A stretch of DNA of 64,000 nucleotides from Acidimicrobiales bacterium (lineage in GTDB: Bacteria; Actinomycetota; Acidimicrobiia; Acidimicrobiales; RAAP-2). The stretch lies in NCBI GenBank assembly GCA_035702745.1, contig DASSZS010000054.1, forward strand, positions 9,656 through 73,655. Direction: 5' to 3'. This document shows, piece by piece, positions 52,895-63,826 of this stretch. Each line of letters begins with the position of its first letter. The first letter of the stretch is position 1. The position numbers and the translations under genes were made by a program. The notes under the pieces were generated by a model. It had not been told where the DNA came from and did not search any database. It worked only from the letters and a program-made list of their open reading frames with translations.

Positions 52895-53313
52895 TGGCGA
52901 CCCCCCGCGAGATCCCCTGGGCCGAGCTTCGCGCGGGCGCGCGCGAGGCGAGCGCGCGTAGCTACGCGCCCTACTCCGGGGTGCGCGTGGGCGCCTGCGC
53001 GGTGGCCGAGGACGGGCGGGTGGTCGTCGGCTCGAACGTCGAGAACGCCAGCTACGGACTAACCCTGTGCGCCGAGTGCTCGCTCGTCTCTGACCTCGTG
53101 CGCACCGGTGGCGGTCGCCTGGTCGCGCTGAGCGTGGTCGCCGGCGACGGCGAGCCCCTCGCCCCGTGCGGCCGGTGCCGCCAGCTCCTCTACGAGCACG
53201 GCGGCCATGGCCTGCTGGTCGACCAGGGCGAGACCGCGCCGGCGCGCCCGCTCGCGTCCCTGCTGCCCGACGCCTTCGGCCCCGGGGACCTCGCCGGCCG
53301 GTCGAGTCGATGA
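52894..53313 (+). CDS. cdd: Cytidine deaminase
   Basis: YAPYS, GSNVENASYGLTLCAE, PCGRCRQ. Confidence 0.95.
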   Translation: MATPREIPWAELRAGAREASARSYAPYSGVRVGACAVAEDGRVVVGSNVENASYGLTLCAECSLVSDLVRTGGGRLVALSVVAGDGEPLAPCGRCRQLLYEHGGHGLLVDQGETAPARPLASLLPDAFGPGDLAGRSSR

Positions 53314-54596
53314 CCTACTCGGCCGTCGAGGTGATCACCGCCAAGCGCGACGGCCTCGCCCTCGACGATGGGGCCATCGACTGGATCCTGAGCGCCTACC
53401 TCGACGGCGCGGTCGCCGACGAGCAGATGGCGGCACTGCTGATGGCCATCTTCTTCAACGGCCTCGACGACCGCGAGCTCGCGACCTTCACGGCGCGGAT
53501 GATCGCCTCGGGCGAGCGGCTCGACCTCTCGGGCCTCTCGCGCCCCACCGTCGACAAGCACTCGACCGGCGGGGTCGGCGACAAGGTCAGCCTGATCCTC
53601 TGCCCGTTGGTGGCAGCGTGCGGGGCCGCCGTCCCCCAGCTCTCGGGCCGCGGCCTCGGTCACACCGGCGGGACCCTCGACAAGCTCGAGTCGATCCCCG
53701 GCTGGCGCGCCCGACTCACCAACGCCGAGGTCCTCGACCAGCTCGAGCGCGTCGGCGCGGTGATCTGCGCCGCCGGCGAGGGGCTGGCCCCGGTCGACCG
53801 GCGGCTCTACGCCCTGCGCGACGTCACCGGCACGGTCGAGTCGATCCCCCTCATCGCCTCGTCGATCATGTCCAAGAAGATCGCCGAGGGGACCTCGGCC
53901 CTGGTCCTCGACGTCAAGGTCGGCGCCGGAGCCTTCATCAAGGACCGTGACCGCGCCCGCGCCCTGGCGGCCACGATGGTCGCCCTCGGCGGGGCCCACG
54001 GCGTGCGCACCCGCGCCCAGCTGACCGACATGTCGACGCCCCTCGGGGTCGCCGTCGGCAACGCGCTCGAGGTGAGCGAGTCGGTCGATGTCTTGCGTGG
54101 CGCCGGGCCCGCCGACGTGCGCGAGCTCACGATCGCGCTGGCGCGCCACATGCTCGAGCTCGTGGGGATTGACGACGACCCCGCGGCGCGCCTCGACGAC
54201 GGCTCGGCCTACGCCGCGTGGCGCGATCTCGTGGCGGCCCAGGGCGGCGACCCGGACGCCGAGATGCCCCGCGCCCCCCTCGTCGAGCCGGTCCTCGCCC
54301 CCCGCGGGGGCGTCGTCGAGCGCCTCGACGCGCTCGCGGTAGGGATCGTCGCCTGGCGCCTGGGCGCCGGTCGGGCCCGCAAGGAGGACCCGGTGTCGGC
54401 GCGCGCGGGGGTGCGCTGCCTGGTGCGCCCCGGCGACGTCGTCGAGGCCGGCCAGCCCCTGCTCGAGCTGCACGCCGACGACCGCGACCATCTGGCGAGC
54501 GGCCGGGAGGTCGCGGTGGGGGCGGTGACCCTGGGTGAGGGGCCGGCGGCGGCGCCCGGCCTGCTCTACGAGGTCGTCGAAGGTGGGGCTCGGTAG
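53310..54596 (+). CDS. deoA: Thymidine / pyrimidine-nucleoside phosphorylase
   Basis: DKHSTGGVGDK, SGRGLGHTGGTLDKLESIPG, YALRDVTGTV, SIMSKK. Confidence 0.95.
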   Translation: MTYSAVEVITAKRDGLALDDGAIDWILSAYLDGAVADEQMAALLMAIFFNGLDDRELATFTARMIASGERLDLSGLSRPTVDKHSTGGVGDKVSLILCPLVAACGAAVPQLSGRGLGHTGGTLDKLESIPGWRARLTNAEVLDQLERVGAVICAAGEGLAPVDRRLYALRDVTGTVESIPLIASSIMSKKIAEGTSALVLDVKVGAGAFIKDRDRARALAATMVALGGAHGVRTRAQLTDMSTPLGVAVGNALEVSESVDVLRGAGPADVRELTIALARHMLELVGIDDDPAARLDDGSAYAAWRDLVAAQGGDPDAEMPRAPLVEPVLAPRGGVVERLDALAVGIVAWRLGAGRARKEDPVSARAGVRCLVRPGDVVEAGQPLLELHADDRDHLASGREVAVGAVTLGEGPAAAPGLLYEVVEGGAR

Positions 54597-54605
54597 CCTG
54601 GGCCG

Positions 54606-55712
54606 ATGGGAGCCCTCACCCTCGAGACCATCCGGCGCGCACCGAAGGTTCTCCTGCACGATCACCTCGACGGGGGGCTGCGCCCCGCGACGGTCGCCGA
54701 GCTGGCCCGCGAGTCGGGCTACGCGAAACTGCCGACCTACGACGTCGAGGAGCTGGCACGCTGGTTCGTCGTCGACGAGCCCGGCGCCGACCTCGTGCGC
54801 TACCTCCAAGGCTTCGCCCACACGATCGCGGTCATGCAGACCCGCGACGAGCTCGAACGGGTCGCCCACGAGTGCGCGCTCGACCTCGCCCGTGACGGCG
54901 TCGTCTACGCCGAGGTCCGCTTCGCCCCCGAGCAGCACTTAGAGCGCGGCCTCACCCTGCACGAGGTCGTGCGCGCGGTGCTCGACGGCTTCGCCTCGGG
55001 CGCCAAGGAGGCCGAGAGCGAGGGCCACCCGATCGTCGTGCGGGCGCTGCTCTCGGCGATGCGCCAGGCCGAGCTCTCCGAGACGATCGCCCAGGTGGCG
55101 GTGGACTTTCGCGACGAGGGGGTCTGCGGGTTCGACATCGCCGGCCCCGAGGACGGCTTCCCGCCCACCAAGCACCTGCGGGCCTTCCACCTCATCCAGC
55201 GCGAGGACTTCCACCTCACGATCCACGCCGGGGAGGCCTTCGGCCTGCCCTCGATCTGGGAGGCGGTGCAGTTCTGCAACGCCGAGCGGCTCGGCCACGG
55301 GGTGCGCATCGTCGACGACCTCACCGAGGGGCCGGGCGGGACCCGGCTGGGGCGGCTCTCTTCTTACGTGAGGGACCGGCGCATCCCCCTGGAGGTCTGC
55401 CCCACCTCGAACGTGCACACCGGGGCGGCGGCCTCGATCGCCGAGCACCCGATCGAGCGCCTGCGCCGGCTGCGCTTTCGGGTCACGGTCAACACCGACA
55501 ACCGGCTCATGAGCGGCATCACCCTCTCGAGCGAGTTCGCCGACTGCGCCGCGGCCTTCGCCTGGACCCTCGAGGACGTCCAGTGGCTGACGATCAACGC
55601 GGCCAAGAGCGCCTTCTTCGGCTTCACCGACCGGCTCGCCCTCATCGACGGGGTGATCAAGCCCGGCTTCGCCGCCCTACGCGCCGAGCTCGAGGCGGCC
55701 CACGAGGTCTGA
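54606..55712 (+). CDS. add: Adenosine deaminase
   Basis: LHDHLDG, YAEVRFAP, HAGE, RLGHG, CPTSN, NTDN. Confidence 0.95.
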   Translation: MGALTLETIRRAPKVLLHDHLDGGLRPATVAELARESGYAKLPTYDVEELARWFVVDEPGADLVRYLQGFAHTIAVMQTRDELERVAHECALDLARDGVVYAEVRFAPEQHLERGLTLHEVVRAVLDGFASGAKEAESEGHPIVVRALLSAMRQAELSETIAQVAVDFRDEGVCGFDIAGPEDGFPPTKHLRAFHLIQREDFHLTIHAGEAFGLPSIWEAVQFCNAERLGHGVRIVDDLTEGPGGTRLGRLSSYVRDRRIPLEVCPTSNVHTGAAASIAEHPIERLRRLRFRVTVNTDNRLMSGITLSSEFADCAAAFAWTLEDVQWLTINAAKSAFFGFTDRLALIDGVIKPGFAALRAELEAAHEV

Positions 55713-57326
55713 GAGCACCCCCTCGGCCCACGCCGCGGCGCGGGCCCGCTGGGCGGCCAGGCTCCCCCGGCGCGCCGGGGTGAGCTCGAGGTAGGCCTTG
55801 ACCTTGGGCTCGGTGCCCGAGGGGCGCACGACCACCCGGCCGTTCGCGCCCAGCCCCAGGCGCACCCCCTCGGTCGCGGGGAGGCCCCGCCAGCCCCGGG
55901 CGAGGTCCTCGACGCCGGTCACGGCCAGCTCCCCGAGGCGAGCCGGGGGGTCGGCGACGAGCCCGGCCACGGCCGCGGCGATGCGCGACGGCCCGTCGAC
56001 GCCATCGGCCCGCACCGACAGCGACGAGGTCGCGTGGACCCCGAAGGCCGTCTCGAGCTCGTCCAGACGATCGAGCAGGGTCCGGCCCCGCCCGGCGAGC
56101 TCGTGGGCGAGTCGGGCCAGGCACAGCGCCGCCGAGAGGCCGTCCTTGTCGGCCACCACGGGGTCGACGGCGAAGCCGAGCGCCTCTTCGTAGCCGAATC
56201 CGAGGCCCCCCGGGCCCCCGGCCCGGGCGATCCACTTGAAGCCCGTGAGCGTCGTCGCGCACGCCACGTGCGCCGCCTCGGCCATCGCCGCGAGCAGCGA
56301 GGACGAGACCAGCGAGGTGGCCACGCGACGGCCCTCGGCGCGCACGCCCGCCAGGAGCGTCGAGGCGAGCAGGGCCCCGATCTCGTCCCCGCGCAGGGTG
56401 CGCCAGCCCCCCGGGGTGCGCACCGCCGCCCCGAGCCGGTCGGCGTCGGGGTCGTTCGCGAGCACCAGGGTCGAGCCGGCCTTCGTCGCGCTCTCGATCG
56501 CGAGGTCGAGGGCGCCCGGCTCCTCCGGGTTGGGGAAGGGCAGGGTCGGGAAGTTGGGATCCGGCTCGTACTGGGCGGCCACCACGTCGAGGCGGCGGTA
56601 GCCGGCGCGCGCGAGCAGGTCGGTCGCGGTGGCCCCACCCACCCCGTGCAGGGGCGTGTAGGTGACCCGCAGCTCGCTCTCGCCGACCGCGAAGCGCCGA
56701 AGAAGATGGTCGCGGTAGCGCTCGAGGAGCGCCTCGTCGGCGACCTCGTGGCCCGGGCCCCCCCGCACCCCCGGTCGGGCCGGTCCCGCGCCGGCCATGT
56801 GGCGCTCGACGATCTCGTCGTCGGGCGGGACGATCTGGGCGCCGTCGTCGGCGTAGAGCTTGTAGCCGTTGTCCTGAGGCGGGTTGTGGCTCGCGGTGAC
56901 GACGATCCCGGCGCTCGCCCCGAGCGCCTTGACGCCAAAGGGCACGAACGGGGTGGGCAGGGGCCGGGGCAGCTCGAGGACCCTCACCCCGGCGCCGAGC
57001 AGGGTGGTCACGACCTCGTCGTTGAAGCGCTCCGAGCCGCGCCGGGCGTCGCGGCCCACGACCACCAGGGGGTCGGCGACGGTCCGCTCGGCCAGCCAGG
57101 CGGCGACCCCCTGGGTGGCGCGGCGCACCGTCGCCCGGTTCATCCCGGCCGGACCGGCCCTCTCGGGGCCGCGCAGGCCGGCCGTGCCGAAGCGAAGGGG
57201 CGGCTCGAAGTGGCGCGCGAGGGCCGCCTCGTCGCCCGCGGCGAGCAGCGCCTCGAGGCTGGCTCGGTCGCCCTCGTCGGGGTCGAGCGCGCACCAGGCG
57301 CGCACGCGCGCCGCCCAGTCGCTCAC
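55677..57326 (-). CDS. Alpha-D-phosphohexomutase-family phospho-sugar mutase (candidate phosphopentomutase)
   Basis: FGTAGLRG, TASHNP, DPDADR, GYEEALG, RPSGTEPK. Confidence 0.9.
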   Translation of the reverse strand: MSDWAARVRAWCALDPDEGDRASLEALLAAGDEAALARHFEPPLRFGTAGLRGPERAGPAGMNRATVRRATQGVAAWLAERTVADPLVVVGRDARRGSERFNDEVVTTLLGAGVRVLELPRPLPTPFVPFGVKALGASAGIVVTASHNPPQDNGYKLYADDGAQIVPPDDEIVERHMAGAGPARPGVRGGPGHEVADEALLERYRDHLLRRFAVGESELRVTYTPLHGVGGATATDLLARAGYRRLDVVAAQYEPDPNFPTLPFPNPEEPGALDLAIESATKAGSTLVLANDPDADRLGAAVRTPGGWRTLRGDEIGALLASTLLAGVRAEGRRVATSLVSSSLLAAMAEAAHVACATTLTGFKWIARAGGPGGLGFGYEEALGFAVDPVVADKDGLSAALCLARLAHELAGRGRTLLDRLDELETAFGVHATSSLSVRADGVDGPSRIAAAVAGLVADPPARLGELAVTGVEDLARGWRGLPATEGVRLGLGANGRVVVRPSGTEPKVKAYLELTPARRGSLAAQRARAAAWAEGVLSDLVGRLELGA

Positions 57327-58153
57327 AGGACCGGGACGAGCCGCCCGAGGAGCTCGCCCAAGGAGGCGGCCGCGCGCTGGCCGGTCTCGAGCACCGCGTG
57401 GTGGTCGAGGGGGGCCGGGCTGACCCCGGCCGCGAAGTTCGACACGAGCGAGAGCCCCACGACCTCGGCCCCGAGGTGGCGCGCGGCGATCGCCTCGAGC
57501 ACCGTCGACATCCCGACGAGCGTCGCGCCCAGGCGGCGGGCCATCTCGATCTCGGCCGGGGTCTCGTAGTGGGGGCCGCGCAGGCCGAGGTAGACCCCCT
57601 CGGGGAGGGCGACGACCCCACCGACGCGCTCGCGCAGCCGGCGGCTGTAGAGGTCGGTGAGGTCGACGAAGCGGCCCGCGTACGGCGCGGGCGGCACGGG
57701 ACCCTCGAGCGGTGAGGTCCCGGTCAGGTTGAGGTGGTCGGCGACGACCACCACCGACCCCGGGCCGATCGCGGGGTCGACGCTTCCCGCGGCGTTGGTG
57801 AGTACGACCGTGCGGGCGCCGGCCGCCACCACGGTGCGCACCGGGTGGACGACGCGGTGGGCGTCGTGGCCCTCGTAGAGGTGGACCCGCCCACTCACCA
57901 GTGCCACGGTGCGCCCGGCCAGGCGCACCGTGAGGATCGCCCCGTCGTGGCCGGCGACGCTGGGGGCGACGAATCCCGGCAGCGTCGAGGCGACCACCAC
58001 GCTCTCGGGCTCACCCAGGGCGACCGCGCCCTCGCGCCAGCCCGAGCCCAGCACGATCGCGAGGTCGTAGCGCTCCACCCCGGTGCGCGCGCACAACTCG
58101 GCGGCCGCCCGCGCGGCCAGCCCGTAGGGGTCTACTGACCGATCGTGTGCCAT
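57323..58153 (-). CDS. punA: Purine-nucleoside phosphorylase (trimeric type)
   Basis: VLGSG, GRVHLYEG, TNAAGS, GPHYETPAE, VGMSTV, SN. Confidence 0.93.
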   Translation of the reverse strand: MAHDRSVDPYGLAARAAAELCARTGVERYDLAIVLGSGWREGAVALGEPESVVVASTLPGFVAPSVAGHDGAILTVRLAGRTVALVSGRVHLYEGHDAHRVVHPVRTVVAAGARTVVLTNAAGSVDPAIGPGSVVVVADHLNLTGTSPLEGPVPPAPYAGRFVDLTDLYSRRLRERVGGVVALPEGVYLGLRGPHYETPAEIEMARRLGATLVGMSTVLEAIAARHLGAEVVGLSLVSNFAAGVSPAPLDHHAVLETGQRAAASLGELLGRLVPVL

Positions 58154-58983
58154 ACCGTGCTCGTCTCGACGAAGGCCCGCAGCCGCTTCAATCCCCGGTC
58201 CTGGGGGTCGGCGCCGCGCAGCACCCGGGAGACGCTCTCGGCCGCCAGCGCGGCGAGCTCCCCGGCGAAGTCGTCGTCGGCGCCCGCGAGGTCGAGCCCG
58301 TCGACGTCCTCGTGGCTCGCGAGCACGGGGCCGACCTCCCCGGTGCGTCCCGTGAGCACGTTGAGCGCCCCGGGCACCAGGTCGCTCGTCGCGGACATCT
58401 CGCCGAGCAGGACGGCCGGGATCGGGCGCGCCTCACTCGCCAGCGCCACGACGGCGTTGCCCGTGGCGAGTGGCGCGGCGACGGCGTCGACGAAGGCCTC
58501 GAGGGAGGAGGCCTGGTCGGCGAGCACGCCCACCACCCCGCTCGGGACCGGCACCGAGAAGTTGAAGTAGGGCCCGGCCACCGGGTTCTGGCCCCCGAGG
58601 ACTTGGGCGACCTTGTCGCACCAGCCCGCGTACCACACCAGCCGGTCGATCGAGCGACCGACACTGGCGCGGGCCTCGCCGGCGCGGACCCCCTCGGCCC
58701 GGGCGACCTGATCGGCCAGCTCGCGTGCGCGCGCCTCGACCATCTCGGCCAACCGGTAGAGGACCTGCCCGCGGTTGTAGGGCGTGAGCGACCACCACGC
58801 GCGCTGGGCCGTGCGCGCGGCGACCACCGCGTCGCGTACGTCCTTGCGCGACGCCTGGGCGACGTTCGCGAGGAAGCGGCCCTTGGCGTCGAGGACCTCG
58901 TAACTGCGCCCCGACTCCGAACGGGGGAAGGCCCCGCCCACGAGGAGCTTGTAGGTCTTTCGCACGTCGAGACGCTCAGACAT
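58132..58983 (-). CDS. Short, non-catalytic ALDH-family subunit (NAD-binding and oligomerisation domains only)
   Basis: ALDH N-domain is present, but PWNFP, FTGST, ELGGK and the catalytic Cys domain are absent. It ends in FVETSTVWH. Confidence 0.82.
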   Translation of the reverse strand: MSERLDVRKTYKLLVGGAFPRSESGRSYEVLDAKGRFLANVAQASRKDVRDAVVAARTAQRAWWSLTPYNRGQVLYRLAEMVEARARELADQVARAEGVRAGEARASVGRSIDRLVWYAGWCDKVAQVLGGQNPVAGPYFNFSVPVPSGVVGVLADQASSLEAFVDAVAAPLATGNAVVALASEARPIPAVLLGEMSATSDLVPGALNVLTGRTGEVGPVLASHEDVDGLDLAGADDDFAGELAALAAESVSRVLRGADPQDRGLKRLRAFVETSTVWHTIGQ

Positions 58984-60433
58984 CGAGGTAGGCCTCCAGC
59001 CCGTGGCGGCCGCCCTCGCGCCCGAAGCCCGACTCTCGGACTCCCCCGAAGGGGCTGGCCGGGTCGAAGCGGTTGTAGGTATTGGCCCACACGACCCCCG
59101 CGCGCAGCCGCTGGGCCACCCACAGGGTGCGCGAGCCCTTCTCGCTCCACACCCCGCAGGCCAGCCCGTAGGTCGTGTTGTTGGCCTTGGCGACGGCCTC
59201 CTCGGGCGTGCGGAAGGTCAGGACCGAGAGCACCGGGCCGAAGACCTCCTCCCGCGCGATCCGGTGGGTCTGGGCGACGTCGGTGAACACGGTCGGGGCG
59301 AACCAGTAGCCCCGCTCGGGCAGGGCGCAGGGGCTCGTGTAGCGGGTCGCACCCTCGCGCTCGCCCCAGGCGGTGAGCTCGCGGATCTTCTCGAGCTGGG
59401 CCGCCGAGTTGATCGCCCCGACGTCGGTGTTCTTGTCGAGGGGATCGCCCACGCGCAGCTGGTCGACCCGCCGGCGCAGACGGTGCAGGACCTCCTCGGC
59501 GATCGACTCTTGGACGAGGAGCCGCGAGCCGGCGCAGCACACGTGGCCCTGATTGAAGAAGATCCCGTCCACGATGCCCTCGACGACCTCGTCCAGGGGC
59601 GCGTCGTCAAAGACGATGTTCGCCCCCTTGCCCCCGAGCTCGAGGGTGAGGCGCGTGGGTCGGCCGGCCAGACGACGCAGGATGACCTTGCCGACCTCGG
59701 TCGAGCCCGTGAAGGCGACCTTGTCGAGCGCCGCGTCGACCAGGGCGGCGCCGGTCGACCCGTCGCCGGTGAGGATGTTCACCACCCCGTCGGGCAGCTC
59801 GGCCTGTTGGAGGATCTCGGCGAGGACCAGGGCGCTCAGCGGCGTCGTCTCGGCCGGCTTCAGCACGCAGGTGTTGCCGGCCGCGAGGGCCGGCGCGAGC
59901 TTCCAGGCGGCCATGAGCAGCGGGAAGTTCCAGGGGATGATCTGGCCGGCGACGCCCAGGGGGCGGGGGTCGGGCCCGAACCCGGCGTGGTCGAGCTTGT
60001 CGGCCCAGCCGGCGTAGTAGAAGAAGTGCGCCGCCGCGAGGGGCACGTCGAGGTCGCGGCTCTCACGGATGGGCTTGCCGTTGTCGAGGCTCTCGAGCAC
60101 GGCGAGCTCGCGGCTGCGCTCTTGGATCAGTCGGGCGATACGAAACAGGTACTTCGAGCGCTGGGCGCCCGTCGTCTTGCGCCACACCTTGTCGTAGGCG
60201 CGCCGGGCGGCCGCCACGGCGGCGGCGACGTCGGCCTCGCCGGCCTGGGCGACGCGGGCCAGGGGCTCCTCGGTCGCGGGGTTGATCGTCTCGAAGGTCG
60301 CGCCGTCGTGCGCCTCGACGAAGGCCCCGCCGATGAAGAGGCCGTAACTCTCGCGCAGCCGCGCGAGGGCGGCCGACTCGGGCGCCGGGTCGTACTCGAG
60401 CGCCGAGAGCGTGGAGGCGGGCCGCTCGTCCAT
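58976..60433 (-). CDS. Aldehyde dehydrogenase (catalytic subunit, likely acetaldehyde)
   Basis: PWNFP, KPAETTP, FTGST, ELGGKG, NQGHVCCAG, EEVFGPV. Confidence 0.92.
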   Translation of the reverse strand: MDERPASTLSALEYDPAPESAALARLRESYGLFIGGAFVEAHDGATFETINPATEEPLARVAQAGEADVAAAVAAARRAYDKVWRKTTGAQRSKYLFRIARLIQERSRELAVLESLDNGKPIRESRDLDVPLAAAHFFYYAGWADKLDHAGFGPDPRPLGVAGQIIPWNFPLLMAAWKLAPALAAGNTCVLKPAETTPLSALVLAEILQQAELPDGVVNILTGDGSTGAALVDAALDKVAFTGSTEVGKVILRRLAGRPTRLTLELGGKGANIVFDDAPLDEVVEGIVDGIFFNQGHVCCAGSRLLVQESIAEEVLHRLRRRVDQLRVGDPLDKNTDVGAINSAAQLEKIRELTAWGEREGATRYTSPCALPERGYWFAPTVFTDVAQTHRIAREEVFGPVLSVLTFRTPEEAVAKANNTTYGLACGVWSEKGSRTLWVAQRLRAGVVWANTYNRFDPASPFGGVRESGFGREGGRHGLEAYLDV

Positions 60434-61425
60434 CAATCCAGCGAGATCCGGTCGGGGCGGGCGTAGGCGCCCGAGCGCTGCTTGCGCCGCTGCAGGAGGA
60501 GGTCGTTCACGAGCGAGGAGGCCCCGAAGCGAAAGAGCGTCGGGTCGAGCCAGGCCGAACCGGCCGTCTCGTTCACCACCACGAGGTAGCGCAACGCCTC
60601 TTTGGTCGTGCGGATGCCCCCGGCCGCCTTCACCCCGACGAGGCGCCCCGTCGACTCGGCGAAGTCGCGTACCGCCTCCAGCATCACCAGGGCCGTGGGC
60701 AGGGTCGCGTTGACCGCGACCTTGCCCGTCGAGGTCTTGATGAAGTCGGCGCCGGCCAGCATGGCCAGCCAGCTCGCCCGGCGCACGTTGTCGTAGGTGA
60801 CGAGCTCACCGACCTCGAGGATCACCTTGAGGTGGGCCGGCCCGCACGCCTCGCGCACCGCGACGACCTCGTCGAAGACCTCGCCGAGTCGACCCGAGAG
60901 GAAGGCGCCGCGGTCGAGAACCATGTCGACCTCGTCGGCACCGGCGGCGACGGCGTCGGCCACGTCGAGGAGCTTGACGGCCCGCGAGGCGCGACCCGAG
61001 GGGAAGGCGGTGGCCACCGAGGCGACGCGCACGGGGCTGCCGGCGAGGTGGACCCGGGCCGTCGCCACGAGGTCGGGGTAGACGCACACCGCCGCCACCG
61101 CGGGCGCGTCGGGCTCGTCGGGGTCGGGACGGCGGGCCTTGGCGCACAGCGAGGCCACCCGCCCGGGGGTGTCGGCGCCCTCGAGGGTCGTGAGGTCGAC
61201 CATCGACAAGGCGAGGTCGATCGCGGCGCGCTTGGTCTCGCGCTTGAGCGAGCGCGTCGCCAGCTTGGCCGCGCGCGCCTCGGCGCCCACCGCGTCCACG
61301 CCCGCCAGTCCCTGAAGGAGGCTGCGCAGTTGCGCCTCGGACTCGACCACCGGGACGCTCGCCCCGGGGCGGGGCCGCACGGCCCGCTCGTCGTCGACGA
61401 CGAGGCGCAGGGGGGCCGGGCTCAC
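60433..61425 (-). CDS. deoC: Deoxyribose-phosphate aldolase
   Basis: DLTTLEGADT, AAVCVYP, VATAFPSG, HLKVILE, FIKTSTGK, GVKAAGGIR. The start is refined to GTG 61425 from a TAGCGT -10. Confidence 0.95.
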   Translation of the reverse strand: MSPAPLRLVVDDERAVRPRPGASVPVVESEAQLRSLLQGLAGVDAVGAEARAAKLATRSLKRETKRAAIDLALSMVDLTTLEGADTPGRVASLCAKARRPDPDEPDAPAVAAVCVYPDLVATARVHLAGSPVRVASVATAFPSGRASRAVKLLDVADAVAAGADEVDMVLDRGAFLSGRLGEVFDEVVAVREACGPAHLKVILEVGELVTYDNVRRASWLAMLAGADFIKTSTGKVAVNATLPTALVMLEAVRDFAESTGRLVGVKAAGGIRTTKEALRYLVVVNETAGSAWLDPTLFRFGASSLVNDLLLQRRKQRSGAYARPDRISLD

Positions 61426-61465
61426 CCCGACCACGCTACCAACCGTGATCCCCACGCCCCCGGGC

Positions 61466-62029
61466 TCAGGCGCGATAGCGGGGCAGCTCGCCGGCCGCGC
61501 GACGCGCGGACAGCCTCGGCGCGCGACGGTCCTTGTCGCTGACCCTCGCCGGACCGCTCAGGGGCCAGGGCACGGCGAGCGCCGGGTCGAAGGGGTCGAT
61601 CTCTAACTCCATCGCCGCGTTGTAGGGCGAGGAGAGCAGGTAGCACAGCGCGGCCTCCTCGCTCGTCACGCAGAACCCGTGCGCCACCCCGGCCGGCAAG
61701 AAGACGGCCCGGCCGGCGTCGGCCGCGAGCTCGACCGTGGCGACCGCGCCGAAGCTCGGCGAGCCCTCGCGCACGTCGACCACGACGTCGACCAGCGTCC
61801 CGTAGGCGCAGGTCACGAGCTTCGCCTGCCCCTCGGGCGCGAGCGAGTAGTGGAGTCCGCGCACCACGTCGCGCGCCGACATCGAGAGGTTCGCCTGAGC
61901 CAGGGTCCACTCCACCCCGAGCTCCTCGAGCGCCGCGCGCTGGAACCACTCGCGGAAGAAGCCCCGCTCGTCGGGCCACACCGGCGAGGAGAGGACGTAG
62001 GCGCCCTCGACCTCCAGGGCGGTGCTCAC
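61466..62029 (-). CDS. rmlC: dTDP-4-dehydrorhamnose 3,5-epimerase
   Basis: DERGFFREWF, QANLSMS, RGLHY, QAKLV, AHGF. Confidence 0.93.
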   Translation of the reverse strand: MSTALEVEGAYVLSSPVWPDERGFFREWFQRAALEELGVEWTLAQANLSMSARDVVRGLHYSLAPEGQAKLVTCAYGTLVDVVVDVREGSPSFGAVATVELAADAGRAVFLPAGVAHGFCVTSEEAALCYLLSSPYNAAMELEIDPFDPALAVPWPLSGPARVSDKDRRAPRLSARRAAGELPRYRA

Positions 62030-63000
62030 GCGCTCGCCGTGAGCGGGCGCCACCAGGCCGCGTTCTCCCGGTACCACGCCACGGTGGCGGCGAGGCCCTC
62101 GTCGAAGTCGACCGAGGGCGCGTAGCCCAGCTCGTCGCGGATCTTCGACCAGTCCACGCAGTAGCGCCGGTCGTGGCCGAGCCGGTCGGCGACCGGCTCG
62201 ATCGCCGACTCGTCGGCGTCCATCAGGGCCAGGATCCGCCGGGTCAGCTCGAGGTTCGTCAGCTCGGTGCCGCCGCCGATGTTGTAGATCTCCCCTGGCC
62301 GGCCCCGCTCGAGCACGGCCAGCAAGCCCCGACAGTGGTCGTCGACGTGGAGCCAGTCGCGCACGTTCCTTCCGTCGCCGTAGAGCGGGACGGTACGCCC
62401 CTCGAGCAGGCGGGTCACGAACAGCGGGATCACCTTCTCGGGGAACTGGCGCGGTCCGTAGTTGTTCGAGCACCGCGTGACCATCACCGACAGACCGAAC
62501 GTCCGGTGGTAGGCCAGCGCGGCCAGGTCCGAGCCCGCCTTGGACGACGAGTAGGGCGAATTGGGCTCGAGCAGGTGGTCCTCGCGCCAGGCGCCCACCG
62601 CGATCGAGCCGTAGACCTCGTCGGTCGACACGTGGACGACGCGCTCGACGCCGGATCGCCGCGCGCTCTCGAGGAGCTGGTGCGTGCCGACGACGTTGGT
62701 CTCGTAGAAGGGCCGCGCCCCGGCGATCGAGCGGTCGACGTGGCTCTCGGCCGCCAGGTGCACCACCGCGTGGGCCCCGGCGAGGGCGGCCTCGACCGTG
62801 GTCGGATCGAGGATCGAGCCGTGCACGAAGCGCGCGCGAGGGTCGGCGAGAGCCCCCTCCAGGTTCTCGAGCCGGCCCGAGTAGGTCAGCGCGTCGAGCA
62901 GGACGACGTCGTCGTAGCCGAGTCGTGGCGCCTCATCGAGCAGCATCTCGGCGAAGCGCGAGCCGATGAAGCCGGCCGCTCCGGTGACGACGACGCGCAT
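62026..63000 (-). CDS. rmlB: dTDP-glucose 4,6-dehydratase
   Basis: TGAAGFIG, HLAAESHVDRS, STDEVYG, YSSSK, NNYGPRQFPEK, DRLGHDRRY. Confidence 0.95.
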   Translation of the reverse strand: MRVVVTGAAGFIGSRFAEMLLDEAPRLGYDDVVLLDALTYSGRLENLEGALADPRARFVHGSILDPTTVEAALAGAHAVVHLAAESHVDRSIAGARPFYETNVVGTHQLLESARRSGVERVVHVSTDEVYGSIAVGAWREDHLLEPNSPYSSSKAGSDLAALAYHRTFGLSVMVTRCSNNYGPRQFPEKVIPLFVTRLLEGRTVPLYGDGRNVRDWLHVDDHCRGLLAVLERGRPGEIYNIGGGTELTNLELTRRILALMDADESAIEPVADRLGHDRRYCVDWSKIRDELGYAPSVDFDEGLAATVAWYRENAAWWRPLTASA

Positions 63001-63030
63001 GACACCTCCCGGGGCGAAATCGGCAGGTCC

Positions 63031-63044
63031 GTATACTACTGGAG
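63031..63044. promoter_or_regulatory. Overlapping divergent -10 elements (rmlB / rmlA)
   Basis: TATACT on the plus strand (63032-63037) and TAGTAT on the minus strand (63038-63033). Confidence 0.65.
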
Positions 63045-63826
63045 TGAAGGGAATCATCCTGGCGGGCGGCACCGGCACCCGCCTCTACCCCATCACCCGC
63101 GCGGTCTCCAAGCAGCTGCTGCCGGTCTACGACAAGCCGATGGTGTACTACCCGCTGAGCACGCTGATGCTCTGCGGCCTGCGCGAGATCCTCGTCATCA
63201 CCACGCCCCACGACCGACCCGCCTTCGAGCGGCTGCTGGGCGACGGCGCCGACCTCGGGCTGCGCCTGCGCTACCAGGTCCAAGACGCCCCCAACGGGCT
63301 CGCCGAGGCCCTGATCTTGGGCGAGGAGTTCCTCGCCGGCGACAAGTGCGCCCTCATCCTCGGCGACAACCTCTTCTACGGGCCGGGGCTGGGCACCCAG
63401 CTCGCGACCCACCGCGAGGTCGACGGGGCGCTGATCTTCGCCTACCAGGTCGCCGACCCCTCGGCCTACGGCGTGGTCGAGTTCGACGAGTCCGGTCGGG
63501 TCCTCTCCATCGAGGAGAAGCCGGCGACCCCCAAGAGCAGCTTCGCCGTGCCGGGCATCTACTTCTACGACGAGCGCGCGAGCGCCTTCGCGCGCACGCT
63601 CACCCCGAGCGGCCGCGGCGAGCTCGAGATCACGGCCCTCAACAACCTCTACCTCGAGCGCGGCGAGCTGCGCGTCGAGGTGCTGAGCCGGGCGACCACC
63701 TGGCTCGACACCGGCACCCACGAGTCGCTCTACGAGGCCGGGGGGCTGATCCGGACCATCCAGCACCGCACGGGGCTGCGCGTGGGCGACGTCGAGCAGA
63801 TCGCCCGGGACCAGGGCTGGGTCTAG
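63044..63826 (+). CDS. rmlA: Glucose-1-phosphate thymidylyltransferase (short C-terminus)
   Basis: GIILAGGTGTRLYP, SKQLLPVYDKP, ILGDN, EEKP, RGELEIT, WLDTGT. Confidence 0.93.
   Translation: MKGIILAGGTGTRLYPITRAVSKQLLPVYDKPMVYYPLSTLMLCGLREILVITTPHDRPAFERLLGDGADLGLRLRYQVQDAPNGLAEALILGEEFLAGDKCALILGDNLFYGPGLGTQLATHREVDGALIFAYQVADPSAYGVVEFDESGRVLSIEEKPATPKSSFAVPGIYFYDERASAFARTLTPSGRGELEITALNNLYLERGELRVEVLSRATTWLDTGTHESLYEAGGLIRTIQHRTGLRVGDVEQIARDQGWV

Follow-up and report, generated by a model that had tools for sequence, protein, structure and literature searches.

The locus and its two aldehyde dehydrogenase genes

The window analyzed here, a stretch of 64,000 nucleotides from an Acidimicrobiales bacterium (GenBank assembly GCA_035702745.1, contig DASSZS010000054.1, positions 9,656 to 73,655), carries on its minus strand a string of five genes with overlapping starts and stops, in the order deoC, a long aldehyde dehydrogenase (ALDH) gene, a short ALDH-like gene, a purine nucleoside phosphorylase (PNP) gene, and a mutase gene. 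Our subject is the pair formed by the long and short ALDH genes which, judged by the comparisons presented below, represent an ALDH16-type enzyme divided in two at its interdomain linker. The long gene (58976..60436, minus strand) specifies the counterpart of the N-terminal, catalytic module of ALDH16, with 486 residues if translation starts at TTG 60436 or 485 if it starts at ATG 60433, the choice of gene callers. The short gene (58132..58983, minus strand) specifies 283 residues that correspond to the C-terminal domain of ALDH16, here as a putative free-standing subunit. The deoC gene (60433..61455, minus strand) is of a long form, with 340 amino acids as listed and an exact start that is uncertain, and its TGA stop overlaps the start of the long ALDH gene.

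The long protein covers the whole Pfam Aldedh profile (positions 2 to 457 of 461; E, 1.6e-158). An original prediction, made from the DNA sequence alone, had credited it with all catalytic motifs, and these are indeed present: PWNFP (residues 168 to 172; 59921-59935), KPAE, GSTEVG (59690-59707), ELGGK (59627-59641), and the catalytic cysteine motif VCCAG (59528..59542), all encoded on the minus strand. PWNFP, ELGGK, and VCCAG align with Asn165, Glu261, and Cys295 of the Loktanella sp. ALDH16 structure 6MVR, residues that have been named as catalytic in that enzyme (PMC12041015), so the catalytic triad is present. At the site of the classic oligomerization beta-hairpin, the YAGWADK and PLG motifs are separated by exactly 11 residues, LDHAGFGPDPR (residues 148 to 158; 59963..59995, minus strand), a loop length found in 66 of 72 long orthologues. 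Compared with the classic tetrameric ALDH 5GTK, the long protein shows a 9-residue gap at the hairpin and, with its C terminus ...GLEAYLDV, stops 8 residues before the end of 5GTK. Hence, the predicted spacing and the predicted end without a terminal strand both stand, but the hairpin had been called missing and is, on this alignment, shortened by about 9 residues and not wholly absent.

The short protein matches only positions 9 to 231 of the Aldedh profile, that is, the first half (Pfam; E, 9.8e-36). The motifs PWNFP, ELGGK, and GSTxxG and the Cys motif are absent from it as well as from all 81 short orthologues, in agreement with the earlier claim that this open reading frame (ORF) lacks the catalytic domain and the cofactor motifs. 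Its YAGWCDK motif is followed by a 22-residue segment, VAQVLGGQNPVAGPYFNFSVPV (residues 125 to 146; 58546..58611, minus strand), that represents a full-length flap hairpin and keeps its length in 80 of the 81 orthologues. The protein ends in ...FVETSTVWHTIGQ, with the C-terminal flap strand FVETSTVWH at residues 271 to 279 (58147..58173, minus strand), lying opposite EVKTIWV in alignments with fused ALDH16. As modeled by AlphaFold (pLDDT, 87.9; pTM, 0.88), the short protein has beta strands at residues 139 to 147 and 150 to 154, forming the hairpin, and at residues 272 to 280, forming the tail. The short ORF was thus rightly said to keep both the hairpin and the terminal strand, and the loop lengths, the gap relative to 5GTK, and the modeled strands together bear out the proposal that these elements of the oligomerization flap are missing from the long protein and retained in the short one.

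Two halves of an ALDH16-type enzyme

Both proteins find their best match among solved structures in the same protein, the 767-residue ALDH16 of Loktanella sp. (6MVR, 6MVS, 6MVT, and 6MVU). The long protein aligns with residues 9 to 474 of 6MVR (E, 2e-166; 557 bits), well ahead of the next family, where the best classic ALDH scores 419 bits (2e-124). Residues 8 to 279 of the short protein align with residues 500 to 763 of 6MVR (106.7 bits), terminal strand included, whereas classic ALDHs align with it only to about residue 249. Likewise, in a Foldseek search with the short-protein model the best matches were 6MVU, 6MVS, and 6MVR (TM score, 0.88 to 0.89 over 284 to 285 columns), as against about 0.80 over 250 to 263 columns for classic ALDHs. 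Because the two proteins match adjacent, nonoverlapping parts of 6MVR, the pair corresponds to an ALDH16 cut within the interdomain linker.

Alignment with 17 fused orthologues is consistent with this view. The N-terminal module of fused ALDH16 ends at the same point as the long protein, and its loop is likewise shortened, to 9 residues; it is followed by a linker of about 26 residues and then by GLD-RTAKLYIGG, which is equivalent to RLDVRKTYKLLVGG at the start of the short protein. When the long and short sequences are joined, whole-chain identity to the fused orthologues is 46 to 50%, and the short part alone is 31 to 32% identical to the C-terminal part of ALDH16 in structure-based alignments and 31 to 34% in MAFFT alignments. 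In these terms the pair has the features of ALDH16 (cd07111-type), namely, the closest catalytic module, an N-terminal module without the flap, and an extra Rossmann-like domain with a beta-flap, but the single polypeptide of that family is replaced by two ORFs in different frames, with an 8-nt overlap and separate start codons. Since two separate polypeptides are encoded, we refer to the pair as a split variant rather than as a plain member of the family.

The structure of the bacterial (Loktanella) ALDH16 was reportedly described by Liu and Tanner in 2019 (J Mol Biol 431:524). According to two reviews (PMC12041015; PMC8160307), the extra domain of ALDH16 is Rossmann-like, has a nonfunctional cofactor-binding fold that apparently binds no nucleotide, and takes part in oligomerization; the enzyme is an unusual dimer that mimics the classic ALDH tetramer, its tertiary contacts imitating classic quaternary contacts in what has been termed trans-hierarchical similarity. 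The original prediction, in which the family was not recognized, knew of no characterization of the complementarity between the two proteins; as those same reviews show, the complementarity itself has already been described, within one chain, and the architecture of the pair is explained by ALDH16.

Some unusual relatives were met along the way. P0184 (833 aa) is a fused ALDH16-like protein with a long proline-rich linker, whose catalytic module is without PWNFP and the Cys motif (…FVDRRHHGHHLLVQES…); judged by these motifs it looks like a bacterial pseudoenzyme version of ALDH16, and its composition looks actinobacterial to us. P0253 (820 aa) likewise lacks the Cys. Two metagenome gene calls, P0159 (484 aa) and P0003 (468 aa), combine a short-type protein with a piece of a long ALDH or with unrelated sequence; the middle of P0159 is garbled, and this call has the look of read-through across a frameshift in a draft assembly rather than of a natural fusion.

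Conservation and selection on the short gene

Both genes are currently named just "aldehyde dehydrogenase family protein," and the short one is easily mistaken for a fragment. Its product is nevertheless widespread and of constant size. At least 586 genome stretches across Actinomycetota encode a relative, the carriers including Acidimicrobiales, Streptomyces, Geodermatophilaceae, Lentzea, Nocardioidaceae, and others. An exhaustive search returned 435 representatives at 50% identity with E values of 1e-30 or lower, most of them free-standing and about 275 to 300 residues long; among the best 150 of these representatives, three are fused proteins of 815 to 833 residues. In all but one of the best 120 short-protein clusters (90% identity), the length is 280 to 285 residues.

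Among Acidimicrobiales relatives, the mean column identity of the short protein is 84%; in this set (alignment A1), NPVAGP.FNFS is invariant and the terminal motif RLRAF.ETSTVWHT invariant or nearly so. Mean conservation is 0.79 for the short protein and 0.84 for the long protein, with peaks in the short protein at the W-YAGW-DK motif, the N-terminal strands, and the terminal strand, the 10-residue block that contains this last strand reaching 0.92. None of 81 orthologous short ORFs contains an internal stop. The median pairwise dN/dS (Nei-Gojobori; pairs with a dS of 0.1 to 1.0) is lowest for the long gene (0.265), with deoC at 0.324 and the short gene at 0.345; the extreme codon bias in these genomes inflates the absolute values. 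By this measure, which had been put forward as a check on the original prediction, the short gene is under purifying selection and constrained like a bona fide enzyme gene.

The junction between the long and short genes

In 79 of 80 Actinomycetota loci, the short gene directly follows the long gene. In the window the two overlap by 8 nt, ATGTCTGA (58976..58983, minus strand), with the short ATG (58983-58981) inside the long gene and the long TGA stop at 58978-58976. A Shine-Dalgarno-like GGAGG (58993-58997, minus strand) is found 9 nt before this ATG, within Leu-Glu-Ala codons of the long gene. The same 8-nt overlap recurs unchanged in 52 of 71 loci, and the remaining junctions, which differ in sequence, are at -4, -1, or 0 or have small gaps (+3 to +71 nt). 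A candidate start codon for the short ORF is present at the expected position in 80 of 80 loci. Read from the DNA, such an arrangement is typical of two subunits whose translation is coupled, and it disfavors a fusion of the two products by frameshifting. In the one exceptional locus, L076 from an uncultured member of the Actinomycetota, the long and short genes are about 2 kb apart and both intact. The gap (L076:4001-6001) holds two ORFs on the opposite strand, one of them rich in coiled-coil-like sequence; the other, from its sequence, is presumably a peptidase M15/VanY-type protein.

Linkage to deoC

The window DeoC scores 175.9 bits with the TIGR00126 deoC model (cutoff, 117.3), its residues 80 to 320 match E. 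coli-type DERA structures (E, 6e-50), and FIKTSTGK is conserved; on these matches it is a genuine E. coli-type aldolase, in a long form. Compared with E. coli DERA it has some 80 extra N-terminal and 20 extra C-terminal residues. Counted from about residue 59 to its end, it shares 48% identity with the Phaeobacter DeoC encoded before a fused ALDH16, and the extensions are in part common to the two, from about residue 59 and including a C-terminal GAY motif.

The deoC gene is found immediately upstream of the split pair in 74 of the 74 loci that reach that far. It holds the same position before fused ALDH16 in all eight proteobacterial loci checked (Phaeobacter, Loktanella, Ruegeria, one further assembly, one metagenome contig, Sinorhizobium meliloti, Caballeronia, and Agrobacterium). 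The order is DeoR, deoC, ALDH16, RbsD/FucU on S. meliloti pSymB; deoC, ALDH16, RbsD/FucU, ribokinase, ABC transporter on a Caballeronia plasmid; and ribokinase, deoC, ALDH16 on an Agrobacterium plasmid. Neighbors other than deoC vary among loci, and because they change from locus to locus, deoC plus ALDH16 stands out as a conserved unit in two phyla.

In these alpha- and betaproteobacterial loci (L081 to L088; for instance, L086:2447-5840, L087:2413-5837, and L088:2473-5840), the single-chain ALDH16 always comes after a long-form deoC, of 328 to 339 codons' worth of residues in L081 to L085. On the three rhizobial or Burkholderiaceae replicons, some of a DeoR regulator, RbsD/FucU, a ribokinase-family kinase, and sugar ABC transporters are encoded nearby; by gene content, the neighborhood of fused ALDH16 on those replicons looks like a deoxyribose utilization cluster.

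DeoC yields glyceraldehyde 3-phosphate and acetaldehyde, and acetaldehyde is the one that needs an aldehyde dehydrogenase. From the gene context, the split enzyme most likely removes the acetaldehyde arising in deoxynucleoside breakdown, and the strict association of deoC with both the split and the fused forms fits the role downstream of DeoC that had been suggested. In the searchable literature, we found no paper that links ALDH16 with deoC, operons, or nucleoside genes or that describes a two-gene ALDH16. A paper on deoxyribose catabolism is silent on any aldehyde dehydrogenase in the kinase/aldolase pathway, an encapsulin paper that names DeoC has no bearing on the pair, and in a paper on Streptomyces coelicolor, where SCO4914 is deoC, SCO4913 is listed just as an ALDH homologue by similarity. 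As far as we found, therefore, both the widespread split form and its universal linkage to deoC are undescribed.

Surrounding genes and occurrence

The PNP gene (57323..58153, minus strand; NF006054, 286.7 bits; cutoff, 218) starts 22 nt inside the short ALDH gene. It is followed, with a 4-nt GTGA overlap, by the gene for a phosphoglucomutase-family mutase (55677..57326, minus strand) that has all four PGM_PMM Pfam domains and, given this context, is probably the phosphopentomutase of the pathway; in related loci, too, the mutase gene stays beside the PNP gene. Thymidine phosphorylase (about 53310-54596; NF004490, 579 bits) and adenosine deaminase (54606-55712; NF006847, 554 bits), both above cutoff, are encoded on the plus strand, convergent with the operon and facing the mutase gene; on their opposite strands, add and the latter gene share about 36 nt at the 3' ends (55677-55712). 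The locus thus has the makeup of a deo cluster, in which deoC is accompanied by enzymes feeding deoxyribose 5-phosphate: PNP and the mutase within the string, deoA and add adjoining it.

Just upstream of deoC lies a dTDP-rhamnose gene set (window 61466-63826) with an rmlC-like gene, rmlB, and a divergent rmlA. The rmlC-like gene, within a longer listed ORF, scores just under its cutoff (149.8 versus 155.75 bits), and the listed rmlB and rmlA ORFs overlap at their 5' ends, the true starts probably being further in. The DNA of the window has a G+C content of 70 to 79%. Two database proteins of 485 residues, P0391 and P0392, one of them from an Acidimicrobiales metagenome-assembled genome, are 100% identical to the long protein, and the same sequence was also found in soil and mine-drainage DNA metagenomes.

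Proposed assembly and alternative explanations

We consider it likely that the split ALDH16 is a two-subunit, alpha-beta enzyme that oxidizes the acetaldehyde derived from DeoC, although association, stoichiometry, and substrate are all properties that we infer. The alpha subunit would be the long protein (about 52 kDa from its length), with the catalytic module, the Asn/Glu/Cys triad, and the NAD site but without most of the oligomerization flap, as is also the case in the N-terminal module of ALDH16. The beta subunit would be the short protein (about 30 kDa from its length), the C-terminal domain of ALDH16 as a separate chain, with an ALDH-derived Rossmann-like fold that has lost the NAD and catalytic residues along with the whole catalytic domain, but has kept the full three-stranded flap. 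In the assembled enzyme, beta may replace the partner subunit of a classic ALDH dimer and cover the catalytic domain of alpha with its flap, an arrangement that ALDH16 achieves within one chain. Pairing of two alpha-beta units might in turn give an alpha2-beta2 particle resembling both the ALDH16 dimer and the classic tetramer, and the overlapping start and stop codons could help synthesis at a 1:1 ratio. In the pathway envisaged, deoA or PNP would feed the mutase and the mutase would feed DeoC, with the resulting acetaldehyde being oxidized by the split ALDH16. Support for the long-plus-short heteromer is strong but indirect, since the two parts are fused elsewhere and split here.

Several observations lend this proposal no support or speak against it. 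A one-chain AlphaFold2 model of the long and short proteins joined head to tail, computed from a shallow alignment of long plus short with fused ALDH16 and short-only rows, shows both halves folded (mean pLDDT, 81.8; pTM, 0.59), with segments of low confidence at residues 452 to 474, 486 to 493, and 618 to 621. Compared with 6MVR (TM score, 0.58 to 0.60; root mean square deviation, 20 Å; 774 columns), the folds are right but their relative placement, which is not confident in this model, does not reproduce that in ALDH16. Likely reasons are a junction of 10 residues in place of the roughly 26-residue ALDH16 linker and the shallow alignment. Further, one review describes Loktanella ALDH16 as active on hydrophobic medium-chain aldehydes, e.g., hexanal (PMC12041015). 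No NCBIfam equivalog model scores above cutoff for either the long or the short ALDH protein. Metatranscriptome contigs gave matches limited to short conserved ALDH motifs at 90 to 95% identity, uninformative on cotranscription, and the separated genes of L076 count on the same side.

The failure of the one-chain model to dock the domains as in ALDH16, as well as the 2-kb separation in L076, could also mean that the long ALDH is self-sufficient and that the short protein has a job of its own, for instance regulation through a bound ligand or partnership with DeoC or PNP. Conservation of the short protein covers both its flap and its Rossmann-like core, leaving room for a different binding function, and the heteromer itself is what we infer. 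We nonetheless judge this reading to be quite unlikely, as a homologous domain is covalently fused to the catalytic module in ALDH16, the best structure for both proteins, as the insertions and deletions in the two are complementary and conserved, and as the genes are adjacent with overlapping start and stop codons in nearly all loci (79 of 80). A different reservation concerns the substrate: with the assembly as proposed, the enzyme might act on another small or medium-chain aldehyde or on glyceraldehyde 3-phosphate. The activity on medium-chain aldehydes such as hexanal is the sole one that we can cite for the family (PMC12041015), and no equivalog model names the enzyme. This too seems unlikely to us, given a deoC gene immediately upstream in every split and fused locus (74 of 74 and 8 of 8, in two phyla) while other neighbors vary, the company of a ribokinase-family kinase, RbsD/FucU, a DeoR regulator, and sugar transporters in Proteobacteria, and the need of an aldehyde dehydrogenase for acetaldehyde among the DeoC products.

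The other two explanations deny that the short protein exists as a functional, separate chain. A +1 ribosomal frameshift at GTC-TGA in ATGTCTGA would continue in frame (...LDV-ERLDV...) and produce one ALDH16-like polypeptide, so that the split would be only apparent, and the conservation of the 8-nt overlap in 52 of 71 loci across classes could be read in this way. The overlap is, however, equally explained by coding constraints in both frames. Other lineages have junctions of different lengths (-4, -1, 0, +3 to +71 nt) and sequences, a candidate start codon for the short ORF is there in 80 of 80 loci, and GGAGG is located 9 nt upstream of the ATG in the window and in ATGTCTGA-type junctions. 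Moreover, no slippery site of a known type is evident, and the resulting junction of 10 residues would be far below the linker length of ALDH16. On the varied junctions, own start codons, GGAGG, and short junction, we reject frameshift fusion as very improbable. Finally, a short ORF without the catalytic domain and the cofactor and catalytic motifs could be the decaying, functionless remnant of a duplicated ALDH gene. The original prediction had argued otherwise, and constant length, conservation, and 79/80 linkage uphold it: a size of 280 to 285 residues in all but one of 120 clusters, occurrence in at least 586 genome stretches, 84% mean column identity among Acidimicrobiales, a dN/dS of 0.345 that matches deoC, 81 orthologues without stops, and a confident predicted fold leave decay with next to no probability, and we regard it as refuted by the conservation and selection data.

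As a more far-reaching possibility, which we consider less likely than not, the ancestral job of ALDH16 may have been to remove the acetaldehyde made by DeoC, with Actinomycetota using an obligate alpha2-beta2 form that combines a live with a dead ALDH-derived subunit and may dock to the long-form DeoC. A physical complex of DeoC with the ALDH, as also suggested originally, is unsupported beyond gene adjacency.

Comparison with known systems

The closest parallel to the split pair is Loktanella ALDH16, which likewise has a catalytic module with a shortened flap loop, the same end point, and an intact Asn/Glu/Cys triad, an extra Rossmann-like, NAD-free beta-flap domain that is the best match of the short protein in both sequence and fold, and a deoC gene immediately upstream. 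In contrast to ALDH16, a single chain of 765 to 795 residues with a linker of about 26 residues, the pair in the window consists of separate polypeptides from overlapping genes, and the hairpin segment of the short protein is 3 residues longer than in ALDH16. Human ALDH16A1 is a pseudoenzyme, of which a variant has been linked to gout and serum urate and for which an interaction with HPRT1 has been proposed. The split pair shares its two-part architecture, but vertebrate ALDH16A1 is inactive and without the catalytic triad (PMC10650815), whereas in the pair the catalytic module is intact and the second module alone is "dead." A fused representative, P0265, matches the short protein with an E value of 1.8e-46. 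Its composition is, on our reading of the sequence, presumably eukaryote-like.

A similar use of an ALDH-derived domain is seen in type B and C PutA proteins, whose C-terminal domain is a second, NAD-free Rossmann fold that governs oligomerization of the ALDH module (PMC12041015); unlike the short protein, it is fused to a proline dehydrogenase/P5C dehydrogenase chain of an unrelated pathway. Because there is no PutA chain among the 50 Foldseek matches listed for the short-protein model, we consider the PutA domain an analogue and not the nearest relative. With classic homotetrameric ALDHs (ALDH2, ALDH1A1, and B. cereus 5GTK), the pair shares catalytic chemistry and fold; the first 50 structure matches listed are 37 to 45% identical to the one-chain long-plus-short model, and the hairpin and terminal strand of the short protein correspond to the classic oligomerization domain. 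Classic subunits swap their own flap with an identical partner, however, whereas in the split pair the flap would be supplied by a noncatalytic subunit.

An aldolase that releases acetaldehyde and is encoded beside the dehydrogenase that consumes it is also known from DmpFG and BphIJ. The adjacency of an aldolase gene and a dehydrogenase gene is common to these systems and the locus studied here, but the DmpFG and BphIJ dehydrogenases are CoA-acylating and of a different superfamily, and a physical complex with a tunnel has been shown there, as opposed to gene adjacency alone here.

Implications

ALDHs are textbook homo-oligomers. If our proposal is correct, this widespread natural ALDH would stand out by its architecture, in which a catalytic subunit is joined by a dedicated noncatalytic one that is itself ALDH-derived. 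Since its two parts can be expressed apart or together, the split form also offers a natural experiment on the role of the C-terminal domain of ALDH16. In the genomes concerned, the split ALDH16 would complete a deoxynucleoside pathway that otherwise ends in toxic acetaldehyde. ALDH16 has long been called the most enigmatic ALDH family, and its strict linkage to deoC, whether fused or split, points to a physiological role that can be tested, in a family described as being of unknown function. Should removal of DeoC-derived acetaldehyde indeed be its ancestral task, there would be reason to test why the inactive human ALDH16A1 has genetic ties to urate and purine handling.

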